Of a stretch of 64,000 nt of DNA, positions 6,827 through 31,100 are shown piece after piece (the first letter of the stretch is position 1; every line of letters begins with the position of its first letter). The DNA comes from Patescibacteria group bacterium (GTDB lineage Bacteria; Patescibacteriota; Patescibacteriia; UBA11705; DATKZF01): the NCBI GenBank assembly GCA_049319825.1, contig JBMORT010000006.1:16012-80011 (forward strand), read 5' to 3'. A program made the translations under genes and the position numbers. A model generated the notes under the pieces. It saw only the letters and a program-made list of their open reading frames with translations, ran no database searches and was not told the origin of the DNA.

Positions 6827-6890
6827 CCGGTGGCTCATTATTGTCAAATGCCGTGAAAATAATATTGCTGCGAATCGATCGCATGTCTTG

Positions 6891-6920: not shown

Positions 6921-6954
6921 AAATCATTCAATTAAAACACACCGGAGGCCAGCA

Positions 6955-7195: not shown

Positions 7196-7225
7196 ATAAG
7201 TTCAGCTTGTATATTTGATTCGCCC

Positions 7226-7254
7226 CTTGACGAAAACGATAAATTAATATAGAA
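7226..7254 (+). promoter_or_regulatory. sigma70-like promoter candidate (TTGACG, 17 nt spacer, TAGAAT)
   Basis: The -35 element is at 7226-7231 and the -10 at 7249-7254, about 60 nt upstream of the ATG at 7314. Confidence 0.4.
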
Positions 7255-7313
7255 TTTTGTATTGAGACGCTCGGGTCATCGCCGTGATTTACAGGGAAAA
7301 AGGAGGAACAGAC

Positions 7314-7526
7314 ATGCCGATGACTAAGGAAGGCGATCGATTTGTTCTTGATGCGTTTGCCAAATTTTTCGAGATTGTTATGGTGCCGACAGTCTCGGGC
7401 GAAGTTCCGGTAAAGTTCAGCTTCCAGATCACTGCCGCAAGAGTCACCGCCGACAATCAGGCCGCGGCCAAGGAAATTGTGTCTGTGGCGCTGGCTAAGT
7501 TGCTCGCGAGCAAGGAACAAAGCTGA
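7314..7526 (+). CDS. small hypothetical protein (70 aa)
   Basis: AAAGGAGGAACAGAC precedes the ATG at 7314 and a rho-independent terminator follows. It is paralogous to the frameshifted upstream copy. Confidence 0.7.
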   Translation: MPMTKEGDRFVLDAFAKFFEIVMVPTVSGEVPVKFSFQITAARVTADNQAAAKEIVSVALAKLLASKEQS

Positions 7527-7530
7527 TTGA

Positions 7531-7560
7531 CCGCTTGTAATACAAAGCGGTTTTTTTTTA
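7531..7560 (+). terminator. rho-independent terminator
   Basis: ccgctt/aagcgg stem followed by a T9 run. Confidence 0.7.
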
Positions 7561-7650
7561 AAAAAATTAAATAAATTTGCGGCTGAACAATAAGTCGTTC
7601 AATCCACGCGATTATTTGAAAATAAAAAGAGCCGGTAATGACCAGCTCCA

Positions 7651-8733: not shown

Positions 8734-8858
8734 CTGCTGCTCCTTTTTAGTCAGGGTTGCGTATCAGCATACTATTTTTAACATTGTTTGTCAATATTTG
8801 TTCCGTCCGACGCAGATTGGTTGATTTTACGAACGAATTATGCTAAATTTAGTTTAAT

Positions 8859-10184: not shown

Positions 10185-10193
10185 TAAACCAAT

Positions 10194-10772
10194 ATGTTAA
10201 GCTTCATTCGCGGGACAATTAAAAATAAAGGCGAAAACTTCGTGATTTTAGAGAGAAATGACCTCGGTTATAAGATTTTCATCAATAAAAAACTGCTGGC
10301 AGACTTGAATTCAGGCGACCCGGCGGAATTTTATCTTTTCGAAAATATCAGAGAAGACGCTGATGATCTTTTCGGATTTTTGACTTTCGAAGAGCTCGGA
10401 CTTTTTGAAAAATTGATTTCGGTCAATGGCGTGGGCCCGAAAACCGCGCTCAATGTTTTTGCCGCGTACTCAGTGCCGCAAATTTTATCCGCCATTGCCA
10501 ATGGCCGGGCTGAGGTTTTCGATGAAGTTCCCGGTTTGGGCAAAAAAACCGCTGAGAGGATTGTTTTGGAATTAAAAAATAAAATTGAATATTTGGAAGG
10601 AGTGACGCCGGCTGAAGCGGGGCCGATTAATAATGATACTATTGAAGCGCTAATGACTTTGGGATACAGCAAGCAGCAGGCGCGCGAGGCGCTGAGCCAA
10701 GTTTCGAAAGACATAAAGGATTCGGGGGAGCAATTAAAGGCGGCGTTGAAGATATTAGGCGGTAGGCAGTAG
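10194..10772 (+). CDS. ruvA: Holliday junction DNA helicase subunit RuvA
   Basis: HhH motifs GVGPKTA and VPGLGKKTAERI; 192 aa with a C-terminal domain III. Confidence 0.9.
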   Translation: MLSFIRGTIKNKGENFVILERNDLGYKIFINKKLLADLNSGDPAEFYLFENIREDADDLFGFLTFEELGLFEKLISVNGVGPKTALNVFAAYSVPQILSAIANGRAEVFDEVPGLGKKTAERIVLELKNKIEYLEGVTPAEAGPINNDTIEALMTLGYSKQQAREALSQVSKDIKDSGEQLKAALKILGGRQ

Positions 10773-10906
10773 GGAGGAGGCAGTAGTATTATCGGAAGCT
10801 GGAAGTTGGGTTTGGGTGTGGAGGCTGGGTCGCTGGCGAATTTCGATAATAGGATTTTTTTAACTAAAAGCAGTATTATCAAAGAGATTTTTAAATTATC
10901 AATTTT

Positions 10907-11998
10907 ATGGTTGTCGCTGAATCAGCTGACATAGTTTCCTGGGAGGGTTTTAACCAGACTCTAAAGTCGGGTTCGCTTTTGCAATCCTGGAATTGGGGCG
11001 AATTTCAGAAAGAGAGGCAGCAAAAGATTTGGCGGCTGGAAGTTAAAGACGGCGAAAAGACTTTGGCGCAGATGTTTTTTTGGCAGCATCGGTATCTGAT
11101 CGGCCAGAATGGGCTTTATTGCCCGCGCGGGCCGGTGGTGACCGATGAGATTTTAAATGATCAAGAAAAATTAGCCGAGGTTTTGAAATTGCTTTTTGAT
11201 CGCGTCCGCCAAATAGCCAAAGAAAACAAAGCTTTGCTTTTTAGAATCGATCCCAATGTGATAATTGACCTTGGAAATGCGGCTGATAAGGATTTTTGGC
11301 GAAAAAATCTGGCAGTGGATGAAGAAAAAATTTGGCCGGATATTTTTGAAAAACAAGGTTTGAAAAAATCAAAGCGCGAAGTCCAGCCCGCGCATACCAT
11401 CATGCTCGATATTTCAAAGTCGGAAGAAGAATTGCTGGCTGATATGAATCAAAAGACCAGATATAACATCAGGCTGGCTGAGAAAAGGGGAGTCGAGATT
11501 ATTGAATCAAATGACGCCAAAGCCTTTTTCGAATTGCTCAAGCAAACCACTTCCCGCCAAAAGTTCGGCGCTTATCCGCTCAAGTATTTTGAAGATATTT
11601 TAAAATTTGATTTTTCGAAATTGTATTTGGCCAAGTACGCAGGCAAATTCATTGCCGGAATTTTGTGCGTGTATTATGGAAAGGTGGCCACATATCTTTT
11701 CGGCGCGTCCTCGGATGAGTATCGAAACGTCATGGCCCCGCATCTTTTGCAGTGGCGCGCGATCCTGGACGCGAAAAAAGCGGGATTTGATATTTATGAT
11801 TTTTGGGGAGCCGCGCCCGCGGAGTCGAAGGTCAAGCAAGAGCAGTCTTGGCAGGGCATTACCAGATTCAAGCAGGGCTTTAATCCGCTCCAGCCGATAT
11901 TTCAGTATTTGGGCTGTTATGAGATGGTTTTCCGGCCAGTAATGCTGAGAATTTGGGATTTGGGTTACAAGATGTACAAGATTTTGCGTACGAGATAG
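10907..11998 (+). CDS. FemAB-family aminoacyl-tRNA-dependent peptidoglycan transferase
   Basis: 363 aa with a Fem-like pattern. The C-terminus (...WDLGYKMYKILRTR) is encoded by the first copy of the downstream 63-bp tandem repeat. Confidence 0.75.
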   Translation: MVVAESADIVSWEGFNQTLKSGSLLQSWNWGEFQKERQQKIWRLEVKDGEKTLAQMFFWQHRYLIGQNGLYCPRGPVVTDEILNDQEKLAEVLKLLFDRVRQIAKENKALLFRIDPNVIIDLGNAADKDFWRKNLAVDEEKIWPDIFEKQGLKKSKREVQPAHTIMLDISKSEEELLADMNQKTRYNIRLAEKRGVEIIESNDAKAFFELLKQTTSRQKFGAYPLKYFEDILKFDFSKLYLAKYAGKFIAGILCVYYGKVATYLFGASSDEYRNVMAPHLLQWRAILDAKKAGFDIYDFWGAAPAESKVKQEQSWQGITRFKQGFNPLQPIFQYLGCYEMVFRPVMLRIWDLGYKMYKILRTR

Positions 11999-12133
11999 TA
12001 CCAGATAAAAGATGAACTATTTTTGGGTTACAAGATGTACAAGATTTGTCATACGAGATAGTACCAGATAAAAGATGAACTATTTTTGGGTTACAAGATG
12101 TACAAGATTTGTCATACGAGATAGTACCAGATA
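11962..12133. repeat. 63-bp tandem repeat, about 2.7 copies (gggttacaagatgtacaagattt...)
   Basis: Copies start at 11962, 12025 and 12088, and are near-identical. Copy 1 overlaps the femAB-like stop codon. Confidence 0.8.
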
Positions 12134-12605: not shown

Positions 12606-13544
12606 ATGACATTGAATTCGAAGAAATTTAAATTCATTTTTGTAGTTGGGATCTGTTTTTTGGTAATTCTTTTCAATCAGTCGGTTTTTGCCATGCAAAG
12701 CAGCAATTACATTATCAATTGGGATTCGATCAATGCCGGCGGCAACGATAATTCCCAATCGGCAAATTACAAAGTTAGAGATACCTTGGGACAGCTCGGT
12801 CCGGGAAAAAGTGACAGCGCCAGTTATACGCTGCATGCCGGCTACCGGGTGCCTTTTGATGAGCCGCAAATTCTTTCTTTTTCGGTTAATGCGCAAAACG
12901 ATAACACCGAGGTTGCTTACAGCGCTTTCAGTTCGGCTAGCTTTACGGCAACCGTGGCCGATGCCAGCGGCTACGCTGCTGGCGATTACATCGCGGTCGT
13001 GGAAAATGTCGGGCCGAATCAAATGGTCGCCTCCGGCAGAATAATCGATGTCAGCGGCACCGTGCTGACGGTGGACAAATGGTCCGGTGATCAAGGATCA
13101 ATGAACGGCAGTCCGAGCGGCGGGGATGATTTCGTTTATAAACTGAATACACGATACATATCGCTGGATAAGCTGACCAGCGCGGCGGTCTCGACCGGCG
13201 TGGCCATGGCCGAGGTAACGACCAACGCTGTTAACGGCTATACCGTATACATTAAGGAAAATTACAATTTGCGATTAAACGGCGGACCGCGCGATATTGA
13301 CGACGTCCTTGATTCCGCGGTGACGGCGGGCAGTGAAGAGTATGGCATCGAAACTACGGGCGATCATGCCCAGGGAGCAAATGATTTTGCCATTACCGGC
13401 GTTGAGCAAGCGGTTTCCAGCCATACCGGCCAAGCGGCGCTGGAGCGGGTTAATATAATTTATAAAGCATCAATCAGCGCGACGCAAACCGCAGGCGGCG
13501 AGTATAGCCATACCACCAGCTATTACGCTATCGCGAATTTTTGA
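12606..13544 (+). CDS. secreted protein, surface-locus paralogue A (312 aa), C-terminus ...TSYYAIANF
   Basis: N-terminal signal peptide (KFKFIFVVGICFLVILFNQSVFA). The C-terminal roughly 130 aa are homologous to the 13896..14975 product, including the identical end motif. Confidence 0.85.
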   Translation: MTLNSKKFKFIFVVGICFLVILFNQSVFAMQSSNYIINWDSINAGGNDNSQSANYKVRDTLGQLGPGKSDSASYTLHAGYRVPFDEPQILSFSVNAQNDNTEVAYSAFSSASFTATVADASGYAAGDYIAVVENVGPNQMVASGRIIDVSGTVLTVDKWSGDQGSMNGSPSGGDDFVYKLNTRYISLDKLTSAAVSTGVAMAEVTTNAVNGYTVYIKENYNLRLNGGPRDIDDVLDSAVTAGSEEYGIETTGDHAQGANDFAITGVEQAVSSHTGQAALERVNIIYKASISATQTAGGEYSHTTSYYAIANF

Positions 13545-13895
13545 TGGGGGAGGATGTTATTTGGAAATTTGAAAATAGAAATTTGAAACGGAGGAAACTG
13601 AAAGATGAAATGAGAAGCTGAAGATTAGAAATTTGGTAATGGAAGATAATCGTCTGCGAAAATTTAATAAAATTAAATGCTATAAATTTCGATGTTATGG
13701 ATATGCTGATAGATGAGAAAATCGTATCTATCCGCGTGTTCGTAACCAATTTGTTCTTTGTTAAAATAAACAGCTAATTTATTCATAAATTAAAGGTCGA
13801 AGCTGTCAAACAAAATTCGGTTTCGAAACCGACTGGTCAGTCCCCGCTTGTCGTGGACTGATAAGTTAGAGAATTAAAAATTATTAATTAAAACT

Positions 13896-14975
13896 ATGTA
13901 CAGAAAAAGTATAATAATGTTGATTGTGGCATTGATTTTCAGCATGTCATATGTTGTTGTTTCTCCGACTGTAGCCAATGCTTCACACGGCGTGACAATG
14001 TATGCTGATCTCGTCGCCGACGGCGGCACCAATAACCCGTCTACCGTCACCACTCGACCGGAAATAGCCGCCAGCGCCACGGATGAAGTGTTCTTTGGTT
14101 ATGTAGCCGAGGATGAATCAGCCACCAATGAAACTGTGGAATTGACATTCCCGACCGGCTGGACAATCGCCACCAATTGCGCGACTCCGACCACCGATGC
14201 TGATGGCGATACCACCGCTGATGGCGCCGGCGTTGTCGCTGGTAACGTGTATACATACACTTTCACCACTTTGACGACAGCCGCTTCCACCACCGGTCTT
14301 GAATTCTGCGTCGTGGTTACCGCTCCGGCAACCGCAACTAATGCGCCAGTCTATTTGGACAGCATGGCGACCGGTGAAGCTGAATTTGGCGCCACCCTGC
14401 TTTACATTGAGGATGCCAATGACGTCAATGTCACCGCGTCCGTGGAAATCACTTTGGTCTTCGAAATTAGAGAAGGCGATGACACTGGCCTGATCAATTA
14501 CTGCTCTCTGGGCACATTGACCGGCTCCAGCGTAGCTACCTGCGATTATCGGTTGCACGTTGAAACCACCGCCAGCTCCGGTTATAACATCAGATTTAAA
14601 ACCGACGGTGATTTGAGAAAATCCGGCTCCGGCGATGTCGCCGATCCGGAGAACATCGACCGCATCACCGACGGCCTTGGTACTATCACCACCGCCAGCG
14701 CTGAGTCGTATGGCGTGGCGGTAACCGGCGGCAACTGCACCTATAATTCTGCCGCGGGCACTGAGGCGGGCATCTATACTACTGACGACTCTCCGTTGCC
14801 GGCGTTCGCGACAGGTGAAACCGCGCTATTTTCTTGCGGCGGTCCGAATATCCCGACTTATGCTGGTGATACCACCAACACGGTATTGATGGAGCATCGC
14901 GCCAAATCTGATGATGGTACCGGTTCCGGCACTTATCAGCAGATTGTCACCTACTACGTTATCGCTAATTTTTAA
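13896..14975 (+). CDS. secreted protein, surface-locus paralogue B (359 aa), C-terminus ...VTYYVIANF
   Basis: Signal peptide present, Thr/Ala-rich. The C-terminal domain (GYNIRFK...SYGVAVTGG...YYVIANF) is conserved with paralogue A. Confidence 0.85.
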   Translation: MYRKSIIMLIVALIFSMSYVVVSPTVANASHGVTMYADLVADGGTNNPSTVTTRPEIAASATDEVFFGYVAEDESATNETVELTFPTGWTIATNCATPTTDADGDTTADGAGVVAGNVYTYTFTTLTTAASTTGLEFCVVVTAPATATNAPVYLDSMATGEAEFGATLLYIEDANDVNVTASVEITLVFEIREGDDTGLINYCSLGTLTGSSVATCDYRLHVETTASSGYNIRFKTDGDLRKSGSGDVADPENIDRITDGLGTITTASAESYGVAVTGGNCTYNSAAGTEAGIYTTDDSPLPAFATGETALFSCGGPNIPTYAGDTTNTVLMEHRAKSDDGTGSGTYQQIVTYYVIANF

Positions 14976-14985
14976 AGTTAGCTTT

Positions 14986-15020
14986 GGTCCCGAATCCATT
15001 CGGGGCCAGCCGGTAATTTT
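14986..15020 (+). terminator. terminator-like hairpin (ggtcccgaa...ttcggggcc) with a weak T tract
   Basis: Hairpin followed by ...taatttt. Confidence 0.3.
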
Positions 15021-15111
15021 AAAGATTAAAGATGAATATTGAATATAAAAATGAAGGATTAGACTAACAATTACATATTTGGAGGGAGATTATTATTAAT
15101 AAAAAATTGTT

Positions 15112-16062
15112 ATGAAAACATTGAAAGTATTTTTGGTAATACTTTTATCGGTAATGTTTATGTCGCCCGGTTTGGGCCAGGCGCTGACCGTCATACCGCC
15201 GGTGCTGGACAGCATTGATGCTGAACCCGGAAAAACCTATCAGGGATCTTATGAGTTGTTTAATGAAACGGATGTAGCGCAAACCTATTATTTTAAGGCT
15301 CACAATTTCGTGGCCCGAGGCGAAGAGGGGGAATCGGATTTGCTCACGGATGAGGATCAACAAATCGGCTTAGCTTCATGGGTTAAATTAGACGAACCGC
15401 AGCTCGTATTGGTCGGGGGAGATAGAAAAAAAGTCAATTTTAAAATAGATGTTCCGGCCGACGCTGAGCCGGGAGGCCATTACGCGGCGATTTTCGCCAC
15501 CACCCAGCCGCCGTCAGAAGACGTTGGTTTGGGTGAAAATACCGGAGTGCTCTTACTGGTGACCGTCCCCGGCGACATTCGAGAGAACGCGGAGCTGGTT
15601 GAATTTTCGTTGGCCAGCGGAAAAAAGGTTTATAACCGGCCGCCGGTCGAGTTTTTAATCAGAATAAAAAATAATGGAAATGTTCATTTCAAGCCGTTAG
15701 GCGATATCAGCATCAGCGGCTGGGCCGGGGAAAAGGTTAAAGTTGATGCCAATCCCAAGCGGGGAAACGTCCTGCCAAAGAGCATCCGGGCACTTCATCC
15801 CGTATGGGCCGGTCCGGCTGAGCGCGGCGGATTCATGCAGGAATTGAAGAATGAATGGCATAATTTCGCCTTCGGCCGATATAACGCACACCTGGAAATG
15901 GAATGGGGCTCTAATAATGAAAAGTTCATCGGCAATGTGGCGTTTTGGGTTTTCCCGTGGCGGGTGATGTTGGTCGGGTTGATTATTTTGGTTTTATTGA
16001 TTTTATTGATTAGAGGATACAATAAAGCGATTATTAAGAAAGCGCAAAAGCAAAATAAATAG
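15112..16062 (+). CDS. cell-surface protein with signal peptide and C-terminal TM anchor plus basic tail (DUF916/DUF3324-like by pattern)
   Basis: Signal peptide, then LTVIPPVLDSIDAEPGKTYQGSYELFNETDVAQTYYFKAHNF (Ig-like beta-rich). C-terminal FWVFPWRVMLVGLIILVLLILLIRGYNKAIIKKAQKQNK forms a TM segment with a basic tail. Confidence 0.8.
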   Translation: MKTLKVFLVILLSVMFMSPGLGQALTVIPPVLDSIDAEPGKTYQGSYELFNETDVAQTYYFKAHNFVARGEEGESDLLTDEDQQIGLASWVKLDEPQLVLVGGDRKKVNFKIDVPADAEPGGHYAAIFATTQPPSEDVGLGENTGVLLLVTVPGDIRENAELVEFSLASGKKVYNRPPVEFLIRIKNNGNVHFKPLGDISISGWAGEKVKVDANPKRGNVLPKSIRALHPVWAGPAERGGFMQELKNEWHNFAFGRYNAHLEMEWGSNNEKFIGNVAFWVFPWRVMLVGLIILVLLILLIRGYNKAIIKKAQKQNK

Positions 16063-16075
16063 TTGATTGGTTATG

Positions 16076-16101
16076 GCTGACCGCCAGGGGTGGCGGTCAG
16101 C
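16076..16101 (+). promoter_or_regulatory. perfect 11-bp stem-loop (gctgaccgcca-gggg-tggcggtcagc) between the anchor gene and the giant gene
   Basis: Followed by an A-rich rather than T-rich tract, so it is not a canonical terminator. Possible attenuator or RNA-processing site. Confidence 0.35.
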
Positions 16102-16132
16102 AATAAAAAATTAATTATTAGGAGAATCTAGC

Positions 16133-19100
16133 TTGAAGAGTAGGCGGATTTCAAAACATTTGATGAATTCCCGAAATTCAAATTTCCACAAAACAAAGAA
16201 GACAAGGAACCGAAAGCTTGTTGTGTTTTTAATACTGGCAATGATTTTTAACTTGTCTTATTTTAATATTTCGTCAAAGCCGGCCGAGGCCGCGGCCAGC
16301 CAGTTCATCAATTATCAGGGCAAGCTGCTTGATACCAGCGGAATTGAGGTTGATAACGGTCAGTATCATGTTAGATTTAAAATGTACAATGCCGGAACCG
16401 GCGGCTCTCTGCTGTGGTCTGAAAGCTGGGATAACACCACTACTACGGCAACGGTCGATGCGGGATTATTCACTTTAAAATTGGGAGAAGTTAATCCTTT
16501 TCCGGCGACCTTGGATTTCCAAACAGAAAGCGAATACTGGTTGAGCGTGGAAATCGGCGGCTCCGGAGCGACGCCGACTTGGGATGGAGAGATGACGCCG
16601 AGAAAGGAAATTACCGCGGTGGCCTACGCGATGAACGCCGATAAACTTGACGGCAAGAGCGAGGAAGAGTTTGCCGATTTGAGCGAAGACGAAACGATCA
16701 CCGGGCAATACACGCATGACGTGGATGTATTTGACGGCGCGGCGTTAACGACAATTATCAACGCTTCAGACGATAACAGCGTGGACACTTTTTCTTCTTT
16801 GCAAGCCGACGCGGTGCAAAATTCCAATGACGGAGATAATTTATACGGCATATACGTCACGAATTTGCAGGGAACAGCCTCCACCGGCAATGAATACGCG
16901 ATATATCAAGCCGGCACCGGCTGGGATTACGGGTTGTATGTGGAAGATCAGGCGTATTTGGGACAAAATTTGCGCTTTAGCAGCAATTTCGATGTAAAGA
17001 ATACTATTATTGCCAGTGTGAATATAATGGATGTGCAGTCCATTGGAACGAACTCAATGGCTTTCCGAGTAATACCGGGCACAGCTCCCGCTTATTCGGC
17101 GCTGGGAGAAACGCAAGCTTCATTTTTCGAATTTCATCGAAATTCCAGCGGTACGGACAGAATGCTGCTGACTGCGCCGACCAATGCCACCAATGGCTAT
17201 CAATTTGTATCCTACGCCGCGCTTCCGGCGACTCCGGGGCCTTTCTCCTTCGGGTTTACCACCAGTTTGGCCGCGCCGCCGACTAAAGTCATGAATATTT
17301 TCAACACTGGGTCGGTTGGCATTAATACTTTTGGGCCGGATGCCAAGCTGGATGTGTTGGCCACATCTGGTGAGCAATTACGGCTGACATACACGGATGG
17401 TTCGGTTTATACCGGCTTCACCGTCAATTCGGACGGAGATTTGATTGTCGATGCCACCGGCAGTGATATTCGGCTCGCGACCGGAGATAATTTATGGGTC
17501 GCTTCATCGGCTGACATTGTGATTGGCAATACTTATCTAGGTGAATCTACCGCTCAGATCGATAGCGGCGCGTATAATGTGGGAGTGTATAACGGCAATT
17601 TAACATACTCGACCAATACGAATGTTCAGCAGGTGCTTGAAGATTTGGATACGGCGATTGGTTCCGCCGGCAGCAAATGGACGGATGCGGGAAGTTACAC
17701 TTATTTAACGGCTACGACCGATAATTTAGTAGTGGGTTCAAACGCGACGGCTGATGCTGAGTTATTTATGGACGTTGCTGATAAACGGTTACACATCGGC
17801 AGCGGATATATTGATTTCGATTTTACAGGTTCCGGCAACACGGCTGTCGGAGATGATTCTTTATATTCCATTACTAATGGTACCCATAATTCATCTATTG
17901 GTTATCAAGCCATGTACTATTTGACATCTGGCTATGACAATACGGCACTGGGATATCAGGCATTAAGAATAGACAGTTCCGGAACTGGAGGACAATCTTT
18001 TGGCAACACAGCCATTGGTAGTTTAGCTTTATCCAGTATTAATACATCCGCGGCTGTGTACAATACCGCTATCGGCGTTTCATCACTCCAGAATAATACG
18101 ACAGGTTTGGCAAATACTGCTATCGGTGCGTTAGCACTCGATTCAAATGTCATTGGTGCATCCAATGTCGCTTTAGGTTATTCAACACTTCAGGCGAATG
18201 TCAGCGGAGATTATAACGTAGCTTTAGGTGCAGAGGCACTAGACTCATTGACCTCTGCAGATGCTAATATTGCCATCGGTTACAAGGCTATGGATTCAAC
18301 AACGACTGGTCAGTATAACGTGGCATTAGGCCATCAATCTCTGCGAGCTAATATTAGCGCCGACTATTCTACAGCACTGGGCTATCAGGCGCTCTACAGC
18401 AATACGGCGTCGAATATCACAGCCGTGGGCGCGCAAGCCATGTACTCAAACGGCACGGGAACAGAAAATGTGGCGATGGGTTATCAATCACTATATTCAA
18501 ACGACTCAGGCGATCAGCACACAGCAATCGGCTATCAATCATTGTACTCATTATCGGCGAATGTGGATGATAATACAGCTGTTGGATACAGAGCAATGTA
18601 TTCGAATTTAGCTGGAGGTCAGAGCACAGCTATCGGTTCGCAGGCACTTTATAACGCGTTGGCGCCGGGCTACAGCACGGCAGTGGGCTACCAAGCTTTA
18701 TACGCGACCACGACCGGAGATTACAATATCGCCGTGGGAAACCAATCGATGGTAGCCAATACGACGGGCAGCGACAACGTCTCTATTGGAGTAAATGCGC
18801 TGGATTCAAACACTACGGGAAATTACAATATAGCGATCGGCCGCCAATCGCTGCAGGCAAACATTAGTGCCGACTATTCTACAGCACTGGGCTATCAGGC
18901 GCTCTACAGCAATACGGCGTCGAATATCACAGCCGTGGGCGCGCAAGCCATGTACTCAAACGGCACGGGAACAGAAAATGTGGCGATGGGTTATCAATCA
19001 CTATATTCAAACGACTCAGGCGATCAGCACACAGCAATCGGCTATCAATCATTGTACTCATTATCGGCGAATGTGGATGATAATACAGCTGTTGGATACA

Positions 19101-22100
19101 GAGCAATGTATTCGAATTTAGCTGGAGGTCAGAGCACAGCTATCGGTTCGCAGGCACTTTATAACGCGTTGGCGCCGGGCTACAGCACGGCAGTGGGCTA
19201 CCAAGCTTTATACGCGACCACGACCGGAGATTACAATATCGCCGTGGGAAACCAATCGATGGTAGCCAATACGACGGGCAGCGACAACGTCTCTATTGGA
19301 GTAAATGCGCTGGATTCAAACACTACGGGAAATTACAATATAGCGATCGGCCGCCAATCGCTGCAGGCAAACATTAGTGCCGACTATTCTACAGCACTGG
19401 GCTATCAGGCGCTCTACAGCAATACGGCGTCGAATATCACAGCCGTGGGCGCGCAAGCTTTATACTCTAATACATCTGGTACAGGAAACGCCGCTTTAGG
19501 GTACCAGTCTCTATATTCCAATACTTCGGGAAATAACAATTCCGCCTTTGGTTATCAGTCATTGTTCAGTCATGCCTCTGGTAATGATGGTAATACAGCA
19601 ATGGGATATCGTTCAATGTATTCAATGACCGCGGGAGCGTTAAATACATCAATCGGAACAGAGGCTTTATACAGCGCTTTAAGCACGTCGGGAAATGTGG
19701 CAATCGGTTATCGCGCTGGTTATTTTGAAACCGGAAACAATCGTTTATTTATTGATAACAATTCACGATCTGACGAAGCTACCGGAAGGGTAAGATCTTT
19801 AATTTATGGCGAATTTGCCTCTGCAACCGCCGATCAATTATTAAGAATAAACGGATTGACTCAAATTCAAGGTCATTTGATACCATACCAAGATAATTTT
19901 TATAATATCGGATCCGCAGATTACCGTTGGAATAATTTATATGTGGATGATGCTTATGTGTTAAAAGGAGCGACGAATATCAATTTAGAGTCCAGCGGCA
20001 CCCCAACAACATCTGGAGCATATGCTATTGGAGCCAATGATGAGTTTACATACTCAGATTCGACTAATGTTCAGGATGTTCTAGATGATTTGGATGCAGC
20101 ATTGGCTTCCGCCGGCAGCAAATGGACGGATGCGGGAGACTTCACTCACTTAACCTCAACAATCGATGACGTGGTGATCGGCGCGTCAACCACTGAAGAC
20201 GCGGTGTTCTGGTTTGATGTAACGGATAACGCGGAAAAGTTTTCAATTGACGCGTCATCGGACGCGCATACCACCGCCGCGCTTGATATTGATTTTCGCG
20301 GCGATGCCAATAATTTAAAAGTGGTTGATATATATGCCGGATCAGCCAGCGGTCTATCTGCCAATTCATTTCTGTTCGGACAATCAATTACTTTAGGATA
20401 TAACGCCGGTGACGCGGCGGGCACTTATCGAATCGCCAACAATGTTGACGTGAACGGCACTAACGCTACTTCAGATATAATTGGATACGCTTTTTTCGAT
20501 AATACTCAAACCGGACAAGATGGGTTATCCGGTGTCGGGTCGGCGACCGGAGCTTATTCGCTGATTTCTCATTCCGGCAGCGGCAGTTTGACCGGTTTTC
20601 AAAATTATTTGTGGCACACGGGCAGTGGCAGCGTTACCGGATTCGGCGGATCGACATCTAGTTCCGGCAGCGGCACAGTTTATGCCGCCAACCCGCAGGT
20701 TTATGGTTTGTCCGGATTTTCCGGTTCGCTTTACGGCTATCGAACATCCATGACCAACAGCAGCGGTTCTACACAGAACATGCTGGGTTTTGATATAAAT
20801 GTGACCAATAATGCCGGCGCTTCGGCCGACAGTTTATGGGGAGGCAAAATAACGGTAAAGGCTTCGGGGACGGAAGATACCGCCGCTTACGGATTGCAGG
20901 TGGTTTCCGATACTGATTTAATTGATAGTTTGATTAATTTGGCGGTCGTCAACGGCGGCTCGGCCGGTTATGGTTTTGATATGAATGGCGCGACAATCGC
21001 GACCGCGGATATCAGATTGTCCAACGGATCAACAATAGATAATCTGACATCAACGGTCGTTGCTTTCAGTGACGGTATCAGAATCGGAAACACTGCGGAC
21101 ACCACGGCCGGAAACATCCGCTGGTCCGGCGCGGATTTTGAGGGCTATAACGGCGCGGGTTGGCAGAGCCTGACATCCGGCGGCGGATCACTCTGGACAG
21201 ATGCCGGCACATACACTTACCTGACGGCCACGCAGGATGATTTGCTCGTCGGTTCAAGTAATAATGCCAGCCGGCCGCTTTATTTCGATGTCAGCAACAT
21301 GTCGCTGGAAATCGGATCGGGCGACACGTTAAACGCCCGGCTTTATATGTATTCGCAGGATGGGGATTCCGGATTGATCGAATATGCCGCTTCGGATCGA
21401 TTTGAATTTTACGATCAGATTTGGGTTCAGGGTTATATTGATTTCGATAACGCTTCCGCCGATACGGCTGTCGGTTACGTGGCTCTGAATTCCAATACCA
21501 CCGGCACCGATAATTCGGCTTTCGGTTACCAAGCGCTCGTCAGCAATACTACGGGTTCATATAATACCGGCATCGGCGCATCCTCATTGATCAGCAACAA
21601 CACCGGATTGGCTAATACGGCCTTGGGAGCTTCTTCATTGTTCTCCAATCAAGGAGGGTCGAATAATACCGCCATCGGCGTCAGCGCCTTATATTCGAAT
21701 GTTTCCGGTGCCAGCAATGTGGCGATCGGTTCCGGTGCTCTAGGTGCGAGCGTCGGAGAAGATTATAATGTGGCCATCGGCGCGGCCGCGCTGGCTAACA
21801 GTTCCGGCGGTACCGCCAACTCGGTAATCGGTTTTCAGAGTTTAACCAATAATATAATTGGAGATTATAATTCCGCCTTGGGTTATCGGTCTCTTTATAA
21901 TGCCACCGGCGATTATAATGTGGCTATCGGTTCTGACTCATTATTTTCGAACATTAACGGAGACAGCAATATCGCCATCGGCTCATACGCCGGATACCAT
22001 GAAACGGGCAGCAATACTTTATATATAGACTCTATTTATCGCTCTAATGAGGCTGATGGCCAGGTAAAGTCGCTAATCTATGGAGAATTCGCCTCAGCCA

Positions 22101-25100
22101 CAGCCGATCAATTGTTCCGAATTAACGGCAATATGGAGGTTCAGGGAAACCTGTCGCCATTGGCCGATGACGTTTATAATCTGGGCTCAGCCGATTCCAG
22201 ATGGGCGAATTTATATCTGGGCCCCGCGTCTTTATACATCGGTCAGAATGGTAATGATTATTCCATTTCTTATAACACCGGATCCAGCGCGTTGGTATTC
22301 AATGAGTCGGGAGCGGATCGGGACATCAGGATTGAAGGCGACACCGACACCAATCTGTTTTTCGTGAATGCCGGCAGCGACCGAATTGGCATTGGATTAA
22401 ATAATCCGGCGGAAAAATTGGAAGTCAGCGGCGCGATCAAGCTGGGAACAACTTCAAATACCAATGCCGGCACCATCCGCTGGACCGGCGCGGATTTTGA
22501 GGGCTATGACGGCGCGGGCTGGCAGAGCCTGACATCCGGCGGCGGATCCTTATGGACGGATGTTGGAGACTTCACTCACTTAACCTCGACAATCGACGAC
22601 GTCGTGATCGGATCAGACGCGACCGAAGACGCAGTATTTTGGTTTGATGTTACCGATGGGGCCGAAAAATTGACCATAGACGCTTCAAGCGATGCTCATT
22701 CATCCGCTGTCGCGTTCGACGTTAATTTTCGAGGGAGCGCGAACAATTTGAAAGCCGTGGATATTTACGCCGGTTCTTCAGCCGGGTTGACCGGCGCGTA
22801 TAATAATTTAATGGGACAAAACATCACCGTCGGTATAAATGCCGCGGATCAGGCCGGCACCATGCGCATCGGCAGCAACGTCAATATCGATGGCACCAAT
22901 GCCACCGCTGATGTTGTCGGCTATACTTTTTGGGATTTCGTTGACACCGGTCAAGGCGGCTTTACTGGCGTTGGATCGGCCACTGGGTTATATCCAATAA
23001 TGAATCATACCGGTAGCGGCAGTTTGTACGGAGTGAATAATTACTTAAGACATTCGGGATCGGGCAGTCTTTACGTTTCCGCCGCGCAAGCGCTGGGAGC
23101 CTCGGGATTCACCGGTTCCTTATACGGAAATTCATTGACCATGGTCAATCAAGCCGGGAGCAACGCGCAAAACATAATGGGGTTTGATCTTAATGTCACC
23201 AATTCGTCTTCGGCCACCGCAGACAGCGTTATCGGCGGCAAGATAACGGTCGACGCCTCCGGCGCGGAAGATATCGCGGCTTACGGATTGCAGGTAGTTT
23301 CCAAAAACGCGCTGGTAGACAGTTTTATCTATTTGGCGAGCCAAACCGGCGGCTCCGCCGGCTACGGCTTGGATATGAACGGCGCGACAATCGCCACCGC
23401 GGATATCAGATTGTCCGGCGGATCGACAATTGATAATTCGACGTCAACGATAATCGCTTTCAGCGACGGCATCAGAATCGGAAACACTGCGGACACCACG
23501 GCCGGAAACATCCGCTGGTCCGGCGCGGATTTTGAGGGCTATGACGGCGCGGGCTGGCAGAGCCTGACATCCGGCGGCGGATCCTTATGGACGGATGCCG
23601 GAGCGTTTACATATTTAACCGCCACCACCGATGACATGGTGGTCGGCTCGGCCGCCACTTCGGACGCGGAGCTGTGGTTTAATGTCAGCGGCAAGAGATT
23701 GACTATCGGATCGGGGTATGTTGATTTCGATTATGGAACCGGCACGGACAACGTGGGCATCGGCAGCAATACTTTAACGGCGATCACTACAGGAAGTTAC
23801 AATATCGGCATCGGCACCGGCGCCTTGCAGGCGGCGACGGATAATAATGGCCTGACCGCTGTCGGTTATCAGGCGTTATATACGAATTCATCGATCGGAA
23901 CAAATAATACCGCTGTTGGTTACAGAGCATTATATCTTAATAACGGCGGTGATTTTAACACCGCGCTTGGATACGAAGCGCTTGATGCCAATGTGAGCGG
24001 GTCAAATAGTGTGGCGATCGGGTACCGCGCGCTTACCAATAGCACCGGAAGCGGAAATGTGGCGGTCGGTTCCGAGGCGCTGTTATCCGCCGTCGGCTCA
24101 ACCAATATCGTCGCGATTGGATATGGCGCTGTTCAGGATCTCACATCGAACGGAGAAGTTGTCGGCGTAGGATATAATTCGCTGGCAAACGCGACTGGCG
24201 CCGGAAACACGGCAATTGGATACATCGCCGGACAAGGAAACGCCGCGTCGGCTACAGGGACGGCCAACACTGCTGTGGGCAGAGGCACATTATCGTCTTT
24301 TTCAACCGGAAATAATAATGTGGCTGTTGGGTATAACGCGTTGGATCAATTGAGTACCGGTACTTATAATATTGCCCTCGGCACCAATGCTTTGGGCGCG
24401 GCGGTGACCGGAAGCAATAACATTGCTATCGGCAACAGCTCATCACTCTTAAACACGTCCGGGATTGATAATATCGCTTTAGGATTTTTCGCGTTAAGCA
24501 CTAATACCGCAGGCCAGGGGAATGTCGGAATCGGACGCAATTCTTTAAGAAACGGCACTGGCAGTTATAATGTTGCGCTGGGCTATGAAGCTGGTTATCG
24601 GGAAACTGGCAGCAATACATTATATATAGATAATCAGGACAGAGGCAATGAAGCCTCTGGCGAGGCCGAATCCTTGATTTATGGCGTGTTTGATAATGTC
24701 GTGTCCAGTCAATTATTCAGGATAAATGCTCCAACGCAAGTTCAGGGAAACTTAATTCCATATCATGATAATGTTTATAATTTAGGCAGCCCAAGCAACC
24801 GCTGGAACAATATTTACACCGACAGAATGATTATGAGTTCCAATGCCGATCTCTATTTTGACGGCACCGATATTTTCTTCAGGAATTTTGAAACCAATGG
24901 AGACATCACCTTGGACGCGACCTCAACCGGCACCGGCAATGTCATTGTCGTCGCCGATAACTGGGCGGTCAACAGCAGCGGCAACATGTCCATTAACGGA
25001 GACATGACCGTGACCGGCGGAGATTTGAATCTTTCATCGGATATCCGGCTGCATGTCAGCGGCGATGATTTGCAGATTCAAAACGCTGCCACTGGCGGAG

Positions 25101-28100
25101 ATATATATTTGGATCCGACATACAACGGCTCCAGCGGATTCGTTTTTGTCAGCGGTGATTTGATGCCGGTTTACGATGATACTTTTGACATTGGATCCCC
25201 GGATCTGCGCTGGCAGGACGGATATTTTTCCGGGCAGGTTTATGTCGGCAATACATTAGAAATTTCAGATGATGGATTTTACGATACTGATAGCGCCATC
25301 GGTTTTTTCCCCGATGGACAGCTGACCAGAGGGTTGGCAATTACCGACGATGTGACTGTGGGTTTGGCTATTACCACCAATGCCAGCACAAATTTGACCA
25401 TTTTGCCAAACAACGCCGATTTGGACGTGCGTCCGACAGCTAATAGCACTGACTTTTTTCAAGTGCAAAATGCCGCCGGCACAGCGATATTTAACGTTGA
25501 CAGCTCCAATTCACGAGTCGGCATCAATACGGCCGCGCCGGATTACGCGCTGGATGTCGCCGGATCTGTCGGCATGGACGATTATATATATCATAACGGC
25601 GACAGCAATACGTATTTGGGATTTTCCGCGGACGATACGCTGGTGGTTTATTCTTATGGGGTGAAGTTGATGGAATATTACAGTTCCTCGGCTTTATCCA
25701 ATTCCGTCACCGGTAACCCCGATAACAATCGGGTGAACTTCGTTTGGGACGGGGACACCAACGACAGTCTATTCCGCATCGCCGCGCTTCAGGAGCAAAT
25801 CGGCATTGGCGCCACCGGCGGCGCGGCCAGCATGGACGGCAAGCTGGTCGTTTATCAGACAGCGACCGCTGATATATTTAATTTGTATGATGGGTCGGAT
25901 AATGTTTTCACGGTGACTGACGGCGGCAATGTCGGCATCAGGCAAACCTCGCCAGCCAGTGATTTTGAAATATTGTCAGACAACAGTACCACGGGCGCGA
26001 CAATGCAGCTCAGACGAAACGATGGCGCCGTGCTTGATGGAGATGATTTGGGATATTTGTATTTTTCAGGATTGGATAGCGGCGACACACTCAACGCCAC
26101 TGGCGCGTACATAAAAGCTGAGGCCACAGATACCTGGGGCGACGCATCCGATCCGGATGACGCGCCGACAGCTATGCATTTTTATACCCAAAACGACGGC
26201 ACTGGCAATAACATGACTTTCCCGATGATGACGATATATGAAGATATCGGCGTTGGCTTATTGCTTAACGGCAATTTGCCGCAGGCGACTTTTCACATGG
26301 AAACCAATAAAAACGGCTATGGCATCCGGATGGAAGAGTATCTCGGCGGCGGCGCCGGCGATTACTGGGAATGGGGAGTCAACGCCGCCGGTGATTTGAA
26401 TTGGAACGACAACGGCACGACCAGAATTTCATATAAAAACGGTGGCGATGTGGGCATCGGCACCAGCGGGCCCGGCGCTAAATTGGAGATTTATGATAAT
26501 GACGATGTCGGCGTGGCATTGGAAGTCAATAGCGACGAGTCGGATACGGCCGCGCAAAATGTTTTTCAAATCAGAACTGATTATAATGCCGCCGATGATT
26601 TGGTGTTTGTGGTCGATGCCGATGGCACGGTCCGAAACGATAATGGCACCTACACTACCGGCGCCGACTACGCGGAATATTTTTGGACAGCTGACATGAC
26701 TTTGGCCACGGCCGACGTGGTTTGCATCGATCCGACGCACAATAACGCGGTTTCCAAATGTTCCGGCGCCAATGACGCCAATATTTTGGGCGTTGTTTCC
26801 ACTAACCCGGCCTTCATCGGCAACGCGGGATCAAACTGGATATTTGACGGTGATCCGAATTATGTGATCATCGGTTTGGTCGGTCAAGTGCCGATTCGGG
26901 TCAGCAATGAAAACGGCCCGATCAGCGTTGGCGATTATTTAACGTCTTCGTCCACTCCGGGCGTGGCCATGAAAGCCGACCCCGGCAGCCCGACAGTCGG
27001 TATCGCCATCGAGCCGCTGACGGCGGGCGCCGGCATCATCAAAGTCGTGATTTCCAGAAATAACGGCAGCAATACTTTCTGGGCTGCCGGCAACAATGGC
27101 ATTTATCAAAACAATTTGCCAACGATTATCGGTCCGGATGCCGCTTTCAGCTATGTGCAGAGCGCGGCCGCCGGAGATCTGCAGATCGCCGATGATTTTG
27201 AAGCCAGAGGCGACGGCTATGTCGGCGCGAATATGATTGTCGGCGCTTCGACATCGGCCGCGGAGACATTGGCTAACGCCGGGTTTGCGATGAACGGCAA
27301 TGATTTGTTTGTGGCCGGCGATGCGGGCATTGAAGGCAATATTTATACTGACGGCTCGTTTATCGCCGGACCGGGTACCACCACTTACAGCGACGGCTCG
27401 ATTACTTCGACAAATACGATGACCATCACTTCAAATACCGGAGACCTGACGCTCGACTCTGGTTCCGGCACATTGAAGCTCGGCGCCGGCACGAATGCAA
27501 TATCAAATTCTGATGCGGGCGCAGATTTAACATTAAATTCGAACGGAGACATCAATTTCTTCAATTCAAATAATTCAATTGATTCCGGCGGCAATTTGAA
27601 TCTGGCCGGCGATATTAATATCGGCGGATCGCTAGTCGTTAATGATATGAGGCTGGGAGATATCGACATCGCTAACGGCGCAATAGCCAGCACGGGCGAT
27701 TTGACCATCGCTTCTGGCGCCAGCCAGGATCTGACGCTTGATTCCGATTCGGGAACGCTCAAGCTCGGCGCGGGCACCAATGAAATCTCCAATACTGACG
27801 CCAGCGCGGATCTGACCATCAAATCCGAAGGCAACATCAATTTCTTCGACGCCAATACATTCATTGATAAAGACGGGAACCTGACTCTGGCCGGCCAGCT
27901 GCAGGCGGCCATGGATGTTATCGCTCAGCAGAACGTGATTATAAAAAATCAGCTTGAGGTGGATCAAATCGCCGCTGATGATCGGCAAGAAATCACCGTC
28001 ATGGACGAGATGGTTTTTGAGCAGGGATTAAAGGTCTCGGCCAAAACGGACACGACAGTCGCCGGCACGCAAGTCAACGTCGCCGGATTCGGCAATGCCA

Positions 28101-31100
28101 ACAACCAGACATCGCGCGCGGCCGCGGTTTACAACGGCAAGCTTTATGTCGGCACATACAACACTTCAAACGGAGCCGGGCTTTGGGCATACGACGGTTC
28201 GAACTGGGCATCGGTTGATACTAACGGCTTTGGCAATGCCAACAATACTTCAATTAATTCAATGATCGCCTATGGCGGCGGTTTAATCGTGGGCACGAGA
28301 AATACGAACAAGGCCGAGGTTTGGATATGTGACGATACGGATACTTGCTCGCAGCAAAATTTAGGAGCGACTTTTGACGGTAATAACGACGCGGCGCAGG
28401 CAATGACCGTTTATAACGGCAAATTATTCATGGGCACGGACAATGCCATTGATAACAGTGAAATTTGGCAGTTTATCGACACCAATAATTGGTTAATGGC
28501 CGATAACACCAACGGGTTTTTAAGCACGTATCAAAATGACGCCTTGACGGCGCTGCTGAGCATTGGCTCACAGCTTAATAATGAAGGATTATTGGCCGGT
28601 ACCAAAAATAACAGCGGCGCGCAGATTTGGCGAAGAGGATCAAATTTCACCTGGACCAGAATCGATAATAGTTCATTCGGCGATATCAATAACGTGGAGG
28701 TGATGGCCATGACCGCATATAACGGTCAGGTGTTCGCCGCCACCAAAAATTCCAGCGGTTGTCGAGTTTATAAACAGCGAGAAGAAAGCACCAGCTGGGA
28801 CGCGGCCGGCAGCGCGGGATTGATAAATTCGGCCTATACCGAATGTCGTTCCATTGTCGTCTATAATGGCGATTTGTACGCATTATTAGGCAAGACTTCG
28901 GGCGCGGGCATGGCCGTGGCCAAATATAACGCTATGGCCAACAGCTGGTCCGCGGTTTATACCAATGCCAGCGACCTGGCCGGTTATTGGTTGCAAACAT
29001 TCGGCGAAAAGTTGTATTTTGCCGCTGAAAGCTCCGGTCAAGTGAAAGTATTTGAATATAATGAAAATAAGAATCTGTCCCAGTCGATTGAATTCATGGC
29101 CAATGGCGAAACGGCCGCCTTATACTTTAAATCCGACGCGGCCGGCGACGCCAATATCGGCCAGCAATCGGCGGGTGCGTTTATCATGACCCATACGTTG
29201 ATCACCAATTCCGGCGCTTATGACTTGGCCGAAGATTGGCCGACGGAAGACCCGGGGATCGAAGCCGGCGACGTGGTGGCCGTTGACCCGTTCAATAAAG
29301 CCCACGTGATCAAGGGTTCGAAAGATAACAGCGCGGTGGGCATAATTTCCACTGAACCGGGCTATATTTTGTCACAAAAAGCCGATGGTCGAATTTACCG
29401 TCCGGTGGCTTTGGCCGGCCGGGTACCGGTAAAAATAAGCAATGAAAACGGGCCGGTTAAGGCGGGAGATTTATTGACACCGGCGTCAATACCGGGTTAT
29501 GCGATGAAATTGATCGGATCCGGGCCGGTGATCGGCAAAGCTTTGGAAGATTACGATTTCAGCGCCGCCGGCGATTCGTACGAGGTATCCCAAGAATTGC
29601 AATCCGCGGCTCAGCAATTTGACGAAATCGCGGAAAATACGATGAAGCTGGTTGAAAATACGGAAGAAGTGGTCAGCTCTTTAAATCAGACCAAGCAAGA
29701 ATTATTGAGCATTGAAAATAATCAGGAATTAACAGCTCAAGAAAAAGACCAGTTGATCAATGAACTATCCGGGGAAATAGAAAATGTGGCGGTCGCTTTG
29801 GAAATAGATGATCAGGCCATTACCGACATCAGCGACAGCGCCGATATCGTTGATGTACAAAATCAAATAATTGAAAAGGCCCAGGAATTGGAGAATCAGG
29901 CGATGCAGGCGGAAATCGCCAAGAGCCAACTGATTCAGCCCATGGCCAAAGATCCGGGCAAGGGCAGAATTATGGCATTGGTGATGAACAGTTATTATTT
30001 TGAATCAACCGACGGCCAGACAGCCGGTCAATTGGCCGCTGGTTCGGCGGCCATCGATCCGCAATCTGTCGCGAGCGTTGACTTCGCTGAAATATTAACT
30101 GTTGCCGGCGATGGAGCGATTGAATTGGCCTCGAGCGTCAGAATATACGGCGATTTATATGTTAATGGCAATTTGGTGGTGACCGGCGATATCGATCTGG
30201 CGGGTAATTTAAAAATCGGAGATAAAATATATATATCCAATCAAATGTCCGGCACGGCGCTGATCGCCTCCGCGGACGCGACTGCGGTCGAAGTGAAGTT
30301 TGATACTCCATACGAAGAAATACCGAGAATCACCGTCACGCCGGAACTGCTGGGATTAACGGCCGATGAAAATATATTTGATGTTTGGGATGGTCGGTAC
30401 ATCATTACCGATAAATCGACTGAGGGATTTACCATTAATATCGCCAACGCGCTTTGCGTGTCCGCCGGCGCGTCAGCTGATGTTGTCGGTTGTCAGCATC
30501 ATTTAAGGTTTGATTGGGTGGCGTTTGGAGTTGTTTCCGATGAAGAATCGCTGGCGCAGATGGTCGAGATGACCGCCAAACCGGCCAGTACCGATAAAGA
30601 GCCGCCATCGATTGACCCTGCGGTCAAAGTAATCATTCGAAACGGCGCCAATTTAGACACCACCGATATCGGCAACAGCTTGATTGGCCTGGGATACGCT
30701 GTTTACAAAGGCGCCGACACGATCAGTTATTACTCCACCTCCAGAATATTGGTGCTGAATTCGCAGCTGTCGCCGTCCGTGCTCAACGAAATTAGGTTCT
30801 TAATCGGCGGTGAGATAGAGTACGCCTCAGCAGCCGGTGAATATGGCGATAGCGACGTGGTAATTTTCTTGGGAGAGGATTTAACCAAAGATGTGTTCAC
30901 CTACGATCAGCAGAAATTATTGGATTCAAATATAACCGACGAAATCCCACCGCTGCCCGCACCGATCGCCGAAACGGCGTCGAGCGACGACACGTTGTCC
31001 GAACAAGCGAATAACGATCAACCCATTCTCAGTGCGGCTGACGGGGCGGTTGAAGATGAAGAAACGCCGATCAATGTCGACGGTCAAATTTCGGATTCGA

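Follow-up and report, generated by a model that had tools for sequence, protein, structure and literature searches.

A conserved C-terminal domain in two secreted proteins of a Patescibacteria group bacterium points to divergent Pam-type pilus subunits

Why should two secreted proteins with different N-terminal parts end in nearly the same residues? This question is raised by a locus in a 64,000-nucleotide stretch (hereafter, the window) of a Patescibacteria group bacterium genome (assembly GCA_049319825.1, contig JBMORT010000006.1, positions 16,012 to 80,011). Four co-directional open reading frames (ORFs) follow one another there on the plus strand: P1 (12606..13544, 312 aa) and P2 (13896..14975, 359 aa), each with a signal peptide at aa 1-29, a 316-aa protein designated 15112 (15112..16062), and a giant surface protein of 5008 aa (16133..31159). 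P1 and P2 share a C-terminal domain, and considering all the evidence we think it probable that they are divergent subunits of Pam-type pili, the shared domain being the Pam acceptor domain.

An earlier reading of this DNA from its sequence alone (the sequence-only reading) had proposed that the last ~130 residues of the two products align, that their N-terminal parts differ, and that three motifs recur in both. All three motifs were found in both proteins: GY.[IV].[FI]K is GYTVYIK in P1 and GYNIRFK in P2, [ES]YG[VI]..TG is EYGIETTG and SYGVAVTG, respectively, and the proteins end with SYYAIANF-stop and TYYVIANF-stop. In BLASTP, residues 184-312 of P1 aligned with residues 202-359 of P2 (28% identity, E 4e-8), and no alignment of the N-terminal parts was obtained, in agreement with the proposal. 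Homologs were gathered and aligned separately for each family (33 for P2 and 58 for P1), and the two family profiles matched each other in hhalign with a probability of 99.5% (E 1.5e-22, 131 columns), the match reaching the last residue. Thus, the BLASTP and profile-profile matches indicate that the domain is homologous in the two proteins and is not a chance motif. It is real, but somewhat longer than had been thought, about 145 residues: ~171-312 in P1 (13116..13541; supported by hhalign and by a domain hidden Markov model (HMM), which scores 159.7 bits there up to the last residue) and 185-359 in P2 (14448..14972; also modeled alone with AlphaFold2 (AF2)). Two cysteines, C203 and C216, are invariant in the P2 family.

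In Pfam, no family was found for P1, P2 or their relatives. Two models of NCBIfam (release 20) detected them: CPR_Pam_pilin_C (NF058581, curated cut-off 55 bits) and CPR_pilus_PamT (NF058579, an equivalog model with a curated cut-off of 240 bits); CPR stands for the Candidate Phyla Radiation. The former matched aa 182-308 of P1 (E 1.9e-6, 28.1 bits) and aa 202-359 of P2 (profile positions 5-148 of 148, E 1.4e-3, 18.8 bits), so that in P2 the domain lies at the extreme C-terminus and its match extends to the very end of the profile (148/148). The PamT model matched aa 11-139 of P1 (profile positions 5-132 of 241, E 1.8e-14, 53.7 bits). Within the families, CPR_Pam_pilin_C matched 28 of 31 P2-family members (best E 1.8e-13) and 33 of 41 P1-family members (best E 2.3e-11), and 40 of the same 41 matched PamT. 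A relative found via the domain profile (P0219) scored 56.8 bits, above the cut-off of 55, and there, too, the domain extends to the final residue of the protein.

These models derive from a 2026 preprint (10.64898/2026.03.03.709456), in which cryo-electron microscopy (cryo-EM) of filaments of Candidatus Mycosynbacter amalyticus identified the pilins PamA and PamB. Both were described as having a beta-sandwich at the N-terminus, joined by a linker that serves as the donor strand to a truncated immunoglobulin (Ig)-like C-terminal domain, whose open barrel accepts the linker strand of the next subunit, and the donated linker and its binding site were the regions conserved most. The same preprint described two chaperones with a C-terminal transmembrane (TM) helix (PamC and PamD), an acceptor-only tip subunit without the linker (PamT), as well as a "tail fibre-like protein" as a conserved neighbor of the Pam genes. 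It contains no mention of a conserved extreme C-terminus, WxL, WxLIP or DUF916. As the sequence-only reading had stated, the ending fits none of LPXTG, PEP-CTERM, GlyGly-CTERM and WxL, but the domain that carries it had already been described, both as CPR_Pam_pilin_C and in the preprint.

The locus agrees with Pam pili, whose pilins are PamA, PamB, PamE and PamT, in several further features. The family is restricted to CPR bacteria; its members carry a Sec signal peptide, and the match of their C-terminal domain to the NCBIfam model extends to the final position. In P2, a conserved linker connects the N-terminal sandwich with the C-terminal domain, and P1 combines the N-terminal module of PamT with the lack of a linker strand. 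Nearby are a candidate chaperone, with two Ig domains by homology and a TM helix at its C-terminus, and a fibre-like giant gene. Several other observations weigh against the assignment. All three scores of P1 and P2 are below the curated cut-offs, and PDB sequence searches with P1, P2 and the domain profile gave nothing relevant. Membership of P1 and P2 in the Pam family thus rests on sub-threshold E-values and on architecture, and the two were likened to PamA, PamB and PamT by means of the NCBIfam models and the published description. The lineage also differs, since Pam homologs were reported mainly from Saccharimonadia and Microgenomatia (10.64898/2026.03.03.709456), whereas the named genomes in our set are Candidatus Uhrbacteria and "Patescibacteria group". 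Proteins of one Patescibacteria metagenome-assembled genome are 100% identical to those of the window. A profile search of genome contigs, which used a narrower alignment, returned 12 loci, none of them from M. amalyticus. The cassette of the window is minimal, with one tip-like protein, one pilin and one chaperone-like protein; a PamR-type terminator was not recognizable in the window and a second chaperone-like gene was not found there. P1 differs from the short PamT-like proteins by an additional domain of ~80 aa. Finally, it is by analogy that the C-terminal strand is proposed, as discussed below, to pair with a donor strand or a chaperone.

The anatomy of P2 was analyzed with the help of AF2 models. 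Behind the signal peptide, a beta-sandwich forms the N-terminal domain (aa 30-164), and a conserved linker (aa 165-186) leads from it to the C-terminal domain (aa 185-359). In the full-length model (predicted local distance difference test (pLDDT) 84.9), the N-terminal domain is rich in strands, residues 172-186 are coil, and the last strand comprises residues 351-357. The model of the domain alone (pLDDT 90.6, predicted template modeling score 0.87) has nine beta-strand elements, and the motif is the final one, so that VTYYVIANF-COOH (14946..14972) provides the last strand in both models. Conservation within the P2 family is highest in the linker (residues 165-193, 0.71) and in the last nine residues (0.78), whereas the N-terminal domain reaches 0.48 and the remainder of the C-terminal domain 0.59, and the most conserved 9-mers are YRLHVETTA and NDVNVTASV (tied at 0.80) and VTYYVIANF (0.78). 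At the sequence level, this pattern, in which the linker and the C-terminal end of the domain stand out, mirrors the description of Pam pilins in the preprint.

The linker contains a candidate donor strand, NDVNVTASVE (aa 175-184, 14418..14447), recognized by its conservation and its alternating V/V/A/V residues; in the model of the P2 monomer it is coil. A donor role of these residues is inferred by analogy with the cryo-EM description of Pam pilins. Just upstream of the domain, 27 of the 33 P2-family proteins and none of the 58 P1-family proteins have a motif of donor-like type, [ND]x[VIL]x[VIL]x[AGSV]x[VIL]; conversely, 52 of the 58 P1-family proteins and none of the 33 P2-family proteins have a mature N-terminal motif, S.NY.I.W. 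This split of the donor motif suggests two classes of carriers, those which might both give and receive a strand (shaft pilins) and those which might only receive one (tip-like). Mature P1 itself begins with a conserved module (SSNYIINWDSINAGG...AGYR, aa 30-82), which is followed by a middle domain (~aa 86-170) and then by the C-terminal domain, the terminal strand of which, TSYYAIANF-COOH (13515..13541), was located from the ORF and the ending of the family. When compared with the layout of a Pam shaft pilin (signal peptide, sandwich, single linker strand and truncated Ig-like domain), P2 has all of these elements and P1 lacks the linker. The PamT score of P1 is insufficient; the linker motif is missing from it, as from PamT, but the middle domain is additional. 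To judge from these layouts, P2 looks like a candidate shaft pilin, and P1 looks like a candidate tip or acceptor-only subunit similar to PamT.

A Foldseek search with the full-length P2 model yielded only generic two-Ig-domain adhesins, because the orientation of the two domains dominates such matches, and therefore the domain was modeled alone. All matches of the domain model in PDB were weak (E 7e-3 or worse, none at E 1e-3). The leading ones were mostly subunits of donor-strand fibers, namely TasA (8aur) and type 1 pilus subunits (9fx0, 9iug, 3sqb; FimA/F/G are those type 1 pilus subunits among the best PDB matches), as well as CsuA/B (6fqa), CfaE (6k73), the PapG pilin domain (2wmp) and PapA (2uy6). 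The same list also includes unrelated folds, such as the DNA-binding domains of p73 and p53 and a GH123 glycoside hydrolase.

Chaperone-usher pilins and TasA make up the majority of the best structural matches of the domain, and they have in common with the proposed acceptor domain an incomplete Ig-like subunit that is completed by a strand of the chaperone or of the next subunit. Chaperone-usher pilins have a conserved aromatic residue at or beside the C-terminus with alternating hydrophobic residues, as does the domain studied here, and in their fold the C-terminal F strand lies along the edge of the groove, where the donated strand pairs with it. The C-terminus of the subunit matters for chaperone binding in these systems (PMC7531860). 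There are, however, clear differences. Chaperone-usher systems have an outer-membrane usher and a soluble periplasmic chaperone; here a soluble chaperone is lacking, and an usher was not recognized among the ORFs of the cassette (domain carriers, chaperone-like genes and large surface proteins). Their donor strand is an N-terminal extension, whereas here it would be an internal linker, and here each subunit bears an additional N-terminal domain. Sequence similarity to chaperone-usher pilins or TasA is not detectable, and the structural matches are weak, as noted above. An identity as chaperone-usher pilins was rejected on these grounds, i.e., the weak fold resemblance, the internal position of the donor-like strand and the lack of an usher in the cassette.

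A terminal phenylalanine preceded by alternating hydrophobic residues also recalls the beta-signals of outer membrane proteins, which have a terminal Phe and hydrophobic residues at -2, -4, -6 and -8. In the ending considered here, F(0), A(-2), V(-4), Y(-6) and V(-8) alternate in the same manner, and the motif could in principle mark a barrel for insertion by machinery like the beta-barrel assembly machinery (BAM). But the domain is modeled as a compact beta-sandwich, and its best, albeit weak, structural matches are pilin-like subunits; the carriers are CPR bacteria, which are generally regarded as having no outer membrane; and the partner gene codes for an Ig-domain protein anchored in the inner membrane. 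We regard this explanation as scarcely credible.

The extent to which the ending is conserved was analyzed by scoring the domain-only profile against 1.84 billion cluster representatives, of which 2039 matched at E <=1e-3 and 698 at E <=1e-10. The consensus ending is G-x-Y-x-[QH]-x-V-T-[YF]-x-[VAL]-T-[AG]-[NST]-[FY]-COOH. Counting back from the last residue (position 0) in 136 representatives, G is found at -14 in 122, Y at -12 in 127, Q or H at -10 in 127, V, I or L at -8 in 127, T at -7 in 91, Y or F at -6 in 109, V, A or L at -4 in 91, T at -3 in 88, A or G at -2 in 104, N, T or S at -1 in 111, and F or Y at position 0 in 116, with P in nine. Thus, the sequence YY[AV]IANF, which had been called invariant, is so between the two paralogs of the window, but family-wide it is a consensus. 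Its location is strict. An ending of this type is terminal in all 91 homologs of P1 and P2, and the last residue is F or Y in 87 of these (V, L or I in the others). Among 225 proteins in which the domain was matched almost completely, the match reached the last residue in 215 and stopped one residue before it in 10. The motif was neither missing from these homologs nor placed elsewhere than at the C-terminus, the two findings that could have spoken against the sequence-only reading. The acceptor domain is always the final part of the protein, and its closing strand is aromatic and conserved, which suggests that the free C-terminus has a role.

The nine representatives that end in ...NP (P0289, P0296, P0300, P0325, P0327, P0337, P0339, P0344 and P0347) include five short proteins (129-215 aa) and four of 334-362 aa. 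Their terminal Pro recalls WxL domains, and none of them matches the Pfam WxL model. The best 150 of the 2039 carriers range from 128 to 2826 aa, and very large proteins also end in the domain (P0276, P0292, P0299 and P0278, 2120-2826 aa). In locus L016, two large carriers (5926-9261 and 9336-11867; 1112 and 844 aa) stand in tandem with carriers of normal size. These large carriers suggest adhesin-type N-terminal cargo mounted on the same acceptor domain.

A conserved ending at the extreme C-terminus, common to secreted proteins whose N-terminal parts differ, is also what would be expected of a sorting signal that some sortase-like or exosortase-like enzyme cleaves or modifies, and the sequence-only reading had considered this option. 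We find it highly improbable. The tripartite structure of such signals is missing, as the motif is the very end of the protein and is followed by neither a hydrophobic helix nor a basic tail; the motif is a high-confidence strand of a folded domain (pLDDT 90.6 for the domain model), and conservation spans ~145 residues rather than a short tail. Moreover, the conserved cassette consists only of domain carriers and WxLIP-like genes, and in the window no sortase was found among the ten neighboring ORFs scanned against Pfam, four of which had no Pfam match of any kind. The idea of sortase-like recognition is thus not supported.

The other option, strand complementation onto an anchor protein, directs attention to 15112. 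In this protein, a signal peptide precedes two Ig-like domains (recognized through homology to WxLIP), and a TM helix with a basic tail closes the C-terminus, an arrangement resembling that described for PamC and PamD; the likeness is by description, as no NCBIfam model matched 15112 or the chaperone-like proteins of the other loci. Four basic residues of 15112, R184, R226, H123 and H192, are invariant or almost invariant. Its family comprises 633 matches, and some sources name members "DUF916 domain-containing protein". The Pfam model WxLIP_PGBD matched 18 of 27 aligned family members (best E 1.5e-7). WxL and WxLIP genes were taken from Lactococcus, Enterococcus, Lactiplantibacillus and Listeria records, and the 15112 family matched six Firmicute WxLIP proteins in hhalign with a probability of 96.6% (E 5.7e-10) over 207 columns that cover both Ig-like domains. 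The best PDB sequence match of the family profile was EfmWxLIP1 (9i25_C; entries 9i25 and 9i1y), with E 0.005. A gene of the 15112 type adjoins domain-carrying genes in all 17 related loci. WxLIP, which is anchored in the membrane, was reported to complete the beta-sandwich of its client with an inserted strand (PMC10599100), and a WxL-WxLIP complex was later deposited as 9i25. Such an insertion follows the principle of donor-strand chaperones. As the 15112 family is homologous to this strand-inserting protein, 15112 is a likely partner of the C-terminal domain and, on sequence grounds, a candidate chaperone and anchor.

This homology raises the question of whether the C-terminal domain is itself a WxL domain. 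WxL/WxLIP clusters (also called Csc; PMC10599100; 9i25) resemble the locus in several ways. They have a homologous partner (the hhalign match above), and the adjacent DUF916/DUF3324 protein with a TM helix that is typical of them has its counterpart in 15112; the domain of their clients stands strictly at the C-terminus, whether the secreted protein is small or large; the partner has been reported to complete it by an inserted strand; and the two aromatic motifs are laid out alike, GYxVxV..DGxL against GWxLxV..QF and TYxVxxN[F/P]-COOH against TWxLxxxP. However, Tyr replaces Trp here in both motifs, and the client domains have no significant sequence similarity: when the domain was compared in hhalign with 7 and later with 11 WxL domains, E was 0.19 and 0.12 over only 17-18 columns, and the first motif alone was aligned. 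The Pfam WxL model (PF13731) matched no member of the family at E up to 10 (up to 1 in one scan), and the WxL chain 9i25_A, although contained in the PDB sequence set, was outside the top 50 Foldseek matches of the domain. WxL homology of the client domain was therefore rejected as a demonstrated relationship. Two further differences are that no LPXTG protein was seen among the ORFs of the cassette and that WxL proteins are described as wall-bound monomers, not filaments.

A rival explanation is a display system without any pilus, in which the domain docks non-covalently on 15112, and perhaps on the cell wall, and P1 and P2 remain single-copy and unpolymerized, as was proposed for WxL/Csc proteins of Firmicutes. 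The homology of 15112 to WxLIP would suit this explanation, and so would the strictly C-terminal position of the domain on small, near domain-only proteins as well as on large ones, the resemblance of its two aromatic motifs to those of WxL, of which only the first was aligned by hhalign, and the nine ...NP endings among the 136 representatives. Yet it is unlikely in our opinion, given the lack of significant similarity between the domain and WxL in hhalign, Pfam and Foldseek. In addition, the conserved donor-like strand of P2 would not be needed for display alone, and relatives of the domain build filaments in M. amalyticus (10.64898/2026.03.03.709456).

A broader and more tentative idea is that the Pam pilus of CPR bacteria and the WxL/WxLIP clusters of Firmicutes might be two branches of one ancient monoderm system, in which a membrane-anchored WxLIP-type protein chaperones and anchors its clients by strand insertion. 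We consider this possible, although rather doubtful. If it were true, ...T-Y-x-V-x-x-N-[F/P]-COOH would be the counterpart of the second WxL motif and GYxVxV of the first, the "cell-wall-binding" WxL domains would be strand-acceptor modules, some of which might polymerize, and in this lineage the cassette might also serve to mount or to anchor the downstream giant through its conserved N-terminal module.

Returning to the Pam-type pilus as the preferred explanation, we propose the following course of events. P1 and P2 would be exported by Sec as pilus subunits, and their shared C-terminal domain would be a truncated Ig-like acceptor, a beta-sandwich with an open groove that is completed by a strand of another protein. 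15112 may insert its own strand into the groove of a newly exported subunit, until the next pilin displaces it, and may also tether the basal subunit to the membrane. The linker strand of P2 (~175-184) would then enter the groove of the C-terminal domain of the preceding subunit and thereby drive polymerization. Having both a donor-like strand and an acceptor domain, P2 could give as well as receive, which would permit it to polymerize into the shaft, and P1, with the acceptor domain and without the donor-like strand, would be placed at the distal tip, like PamT. Formation of a filament in this organism, as well as which strand is donated, is inferred here by analogy with the Pam filaments.

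The terminal strand, as the last beta-strand of the acceptor domain, would in this mechanism form one wall of the groove and pair with the incoming strand, in analogy to the F strand of chaperone-usher pilins, and the free C-terminal carboxylate would be held by the chaperone. Such a pairing, whether with the donor strand or with the chaperone, is again an argument from analogy, and we regard the chances of the groove-wall and carboxylate role as about even. It would explain both the high conservation of the final strand and the fact that nothing is ever appended to it. Strand complementation, as suggested by the sequence-only reading, thus appears to be the most likely mode of action of the domain, with 15112 as the likely partner, but its polarity is probably the reverse of that suggested: the C-terminal strand would belong to the acceptor, and the donor would be the linker of the next pilin or the chaperone.

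The description of Pam pili dates only from 2026 and concerns a single cultivated parasite, in which they were proposed to make the first contact with the host cell. The window would represent a divergent, minimal three-gene version in another CPR lineage (Uhrbacteria or "Patescibacteria group"), and, since the scores fall below annotation cut-offs, the Pam system is probably more widespread than reported. Our analysis adds three observations to the preprint: the aromatic strand is strictly terminal; the partner is homologous to WxLIP, which connects a CPR pilus with a surface system of Gram-positive bacteria that is poorly understood; and giant genes whose N-terminal module is conserved are regularly linked to the cassette. 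These findings extend a very recent discovery and do not overturn current understanding.

Gene order was compared over the 17 related loci. The cassette typically runs from a P1-like gene through zero to three P2-like genes and one or two chaperone-like genes to, often, a ~1100-aa ORF and finally the giant; in the window, the domain HMM detected exactly two carriers next to one chaperone-like gene. The sequence-only reading had raised the question of whether carriers of the ending co-occur with giant genes, and indeed the first ~170-270 aa of the window giant are homologous in downstream giants at 10 of the 17 loci, including L008, L009 and L010. The domain HMM gave no match in the window giant, and the giants of the related loci never carry the domain. 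A weak NCBIfam match, Bdello_MAT_N, was found at aa 51-126 of the giant, and a long, near-identical internal duplication is visible in its translation. Two loci reached via P2 homologs, L001 and L003, have no P1-like HMM match and no giant; L001 has two P2-like and two chaperone-like genes, and upstream of them a 559-aa ORF that ends in ITFSAIGSF and is not matched by the domain HMM. The additional ORF between the chaperone-like gene and the giant (~1100-1200 aa, at ~13100-16700) is present in L010, L018, L019, L020, L022, L023 and L025, with Pfam hints of fn3 and CarboxypepD_reg in L010, and has no counterpart in the window. Six of 12 GTDB cassette records (L015, L016, L017, L021, L024 and L025) are titled "uncultured Gammaproteobacteria bacterium" (TPA_asm metagenome-assembled genomes). 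These titles are probably placeholders, since the cassette and its neighbors look patescibacterial.

The surroundings of the cassette were also inspected. The spacer between P1 and P2 (13545-13895, 351 nt) is AT- and purine-rich and contains no Rfam family. Promoter and terminator matches around the cassette, including this spacer, did not exceed the expectation from shuffled sequence, and the only Rfam hits in the window were three tRNAs, all distant from the locus. A 63-bp unit is repeated 2.8 times at 97% identity at 11959-12133, from the 3' end of a FemAB-like ORF (10907-11998) into the spacer before P1; on the minus strand it gives a repeated peptide within a spurious ORF. Downstream of the giant, Pfam recognized ComEC, NDK and a PEGA-domain protein, and two other ORFs had no match. 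The ComEC-like gene is represented by two overlapping ORFs, 31702-33231 (DUF4131 and Competence) and 33117-34130 (Lactamase_B), a division that could be genuine or could be due to a frameshift or a sequencing error. A ComEC-like gene likewise follows the giant in L008, with one short ORF between them. The upstream order of the window (U32 peptidase/TrhP-like, RuvA and FemAB-like, 8859-11998) is kept at 1147-9402 of L008, where several additional genes lie between RuvA and FemAB and the P1 is 53% identical to that of the window. This upstream order, common to the two loci, indicates that the cassette is located in a stable chromosomal neighborhood and not in a mobile island.

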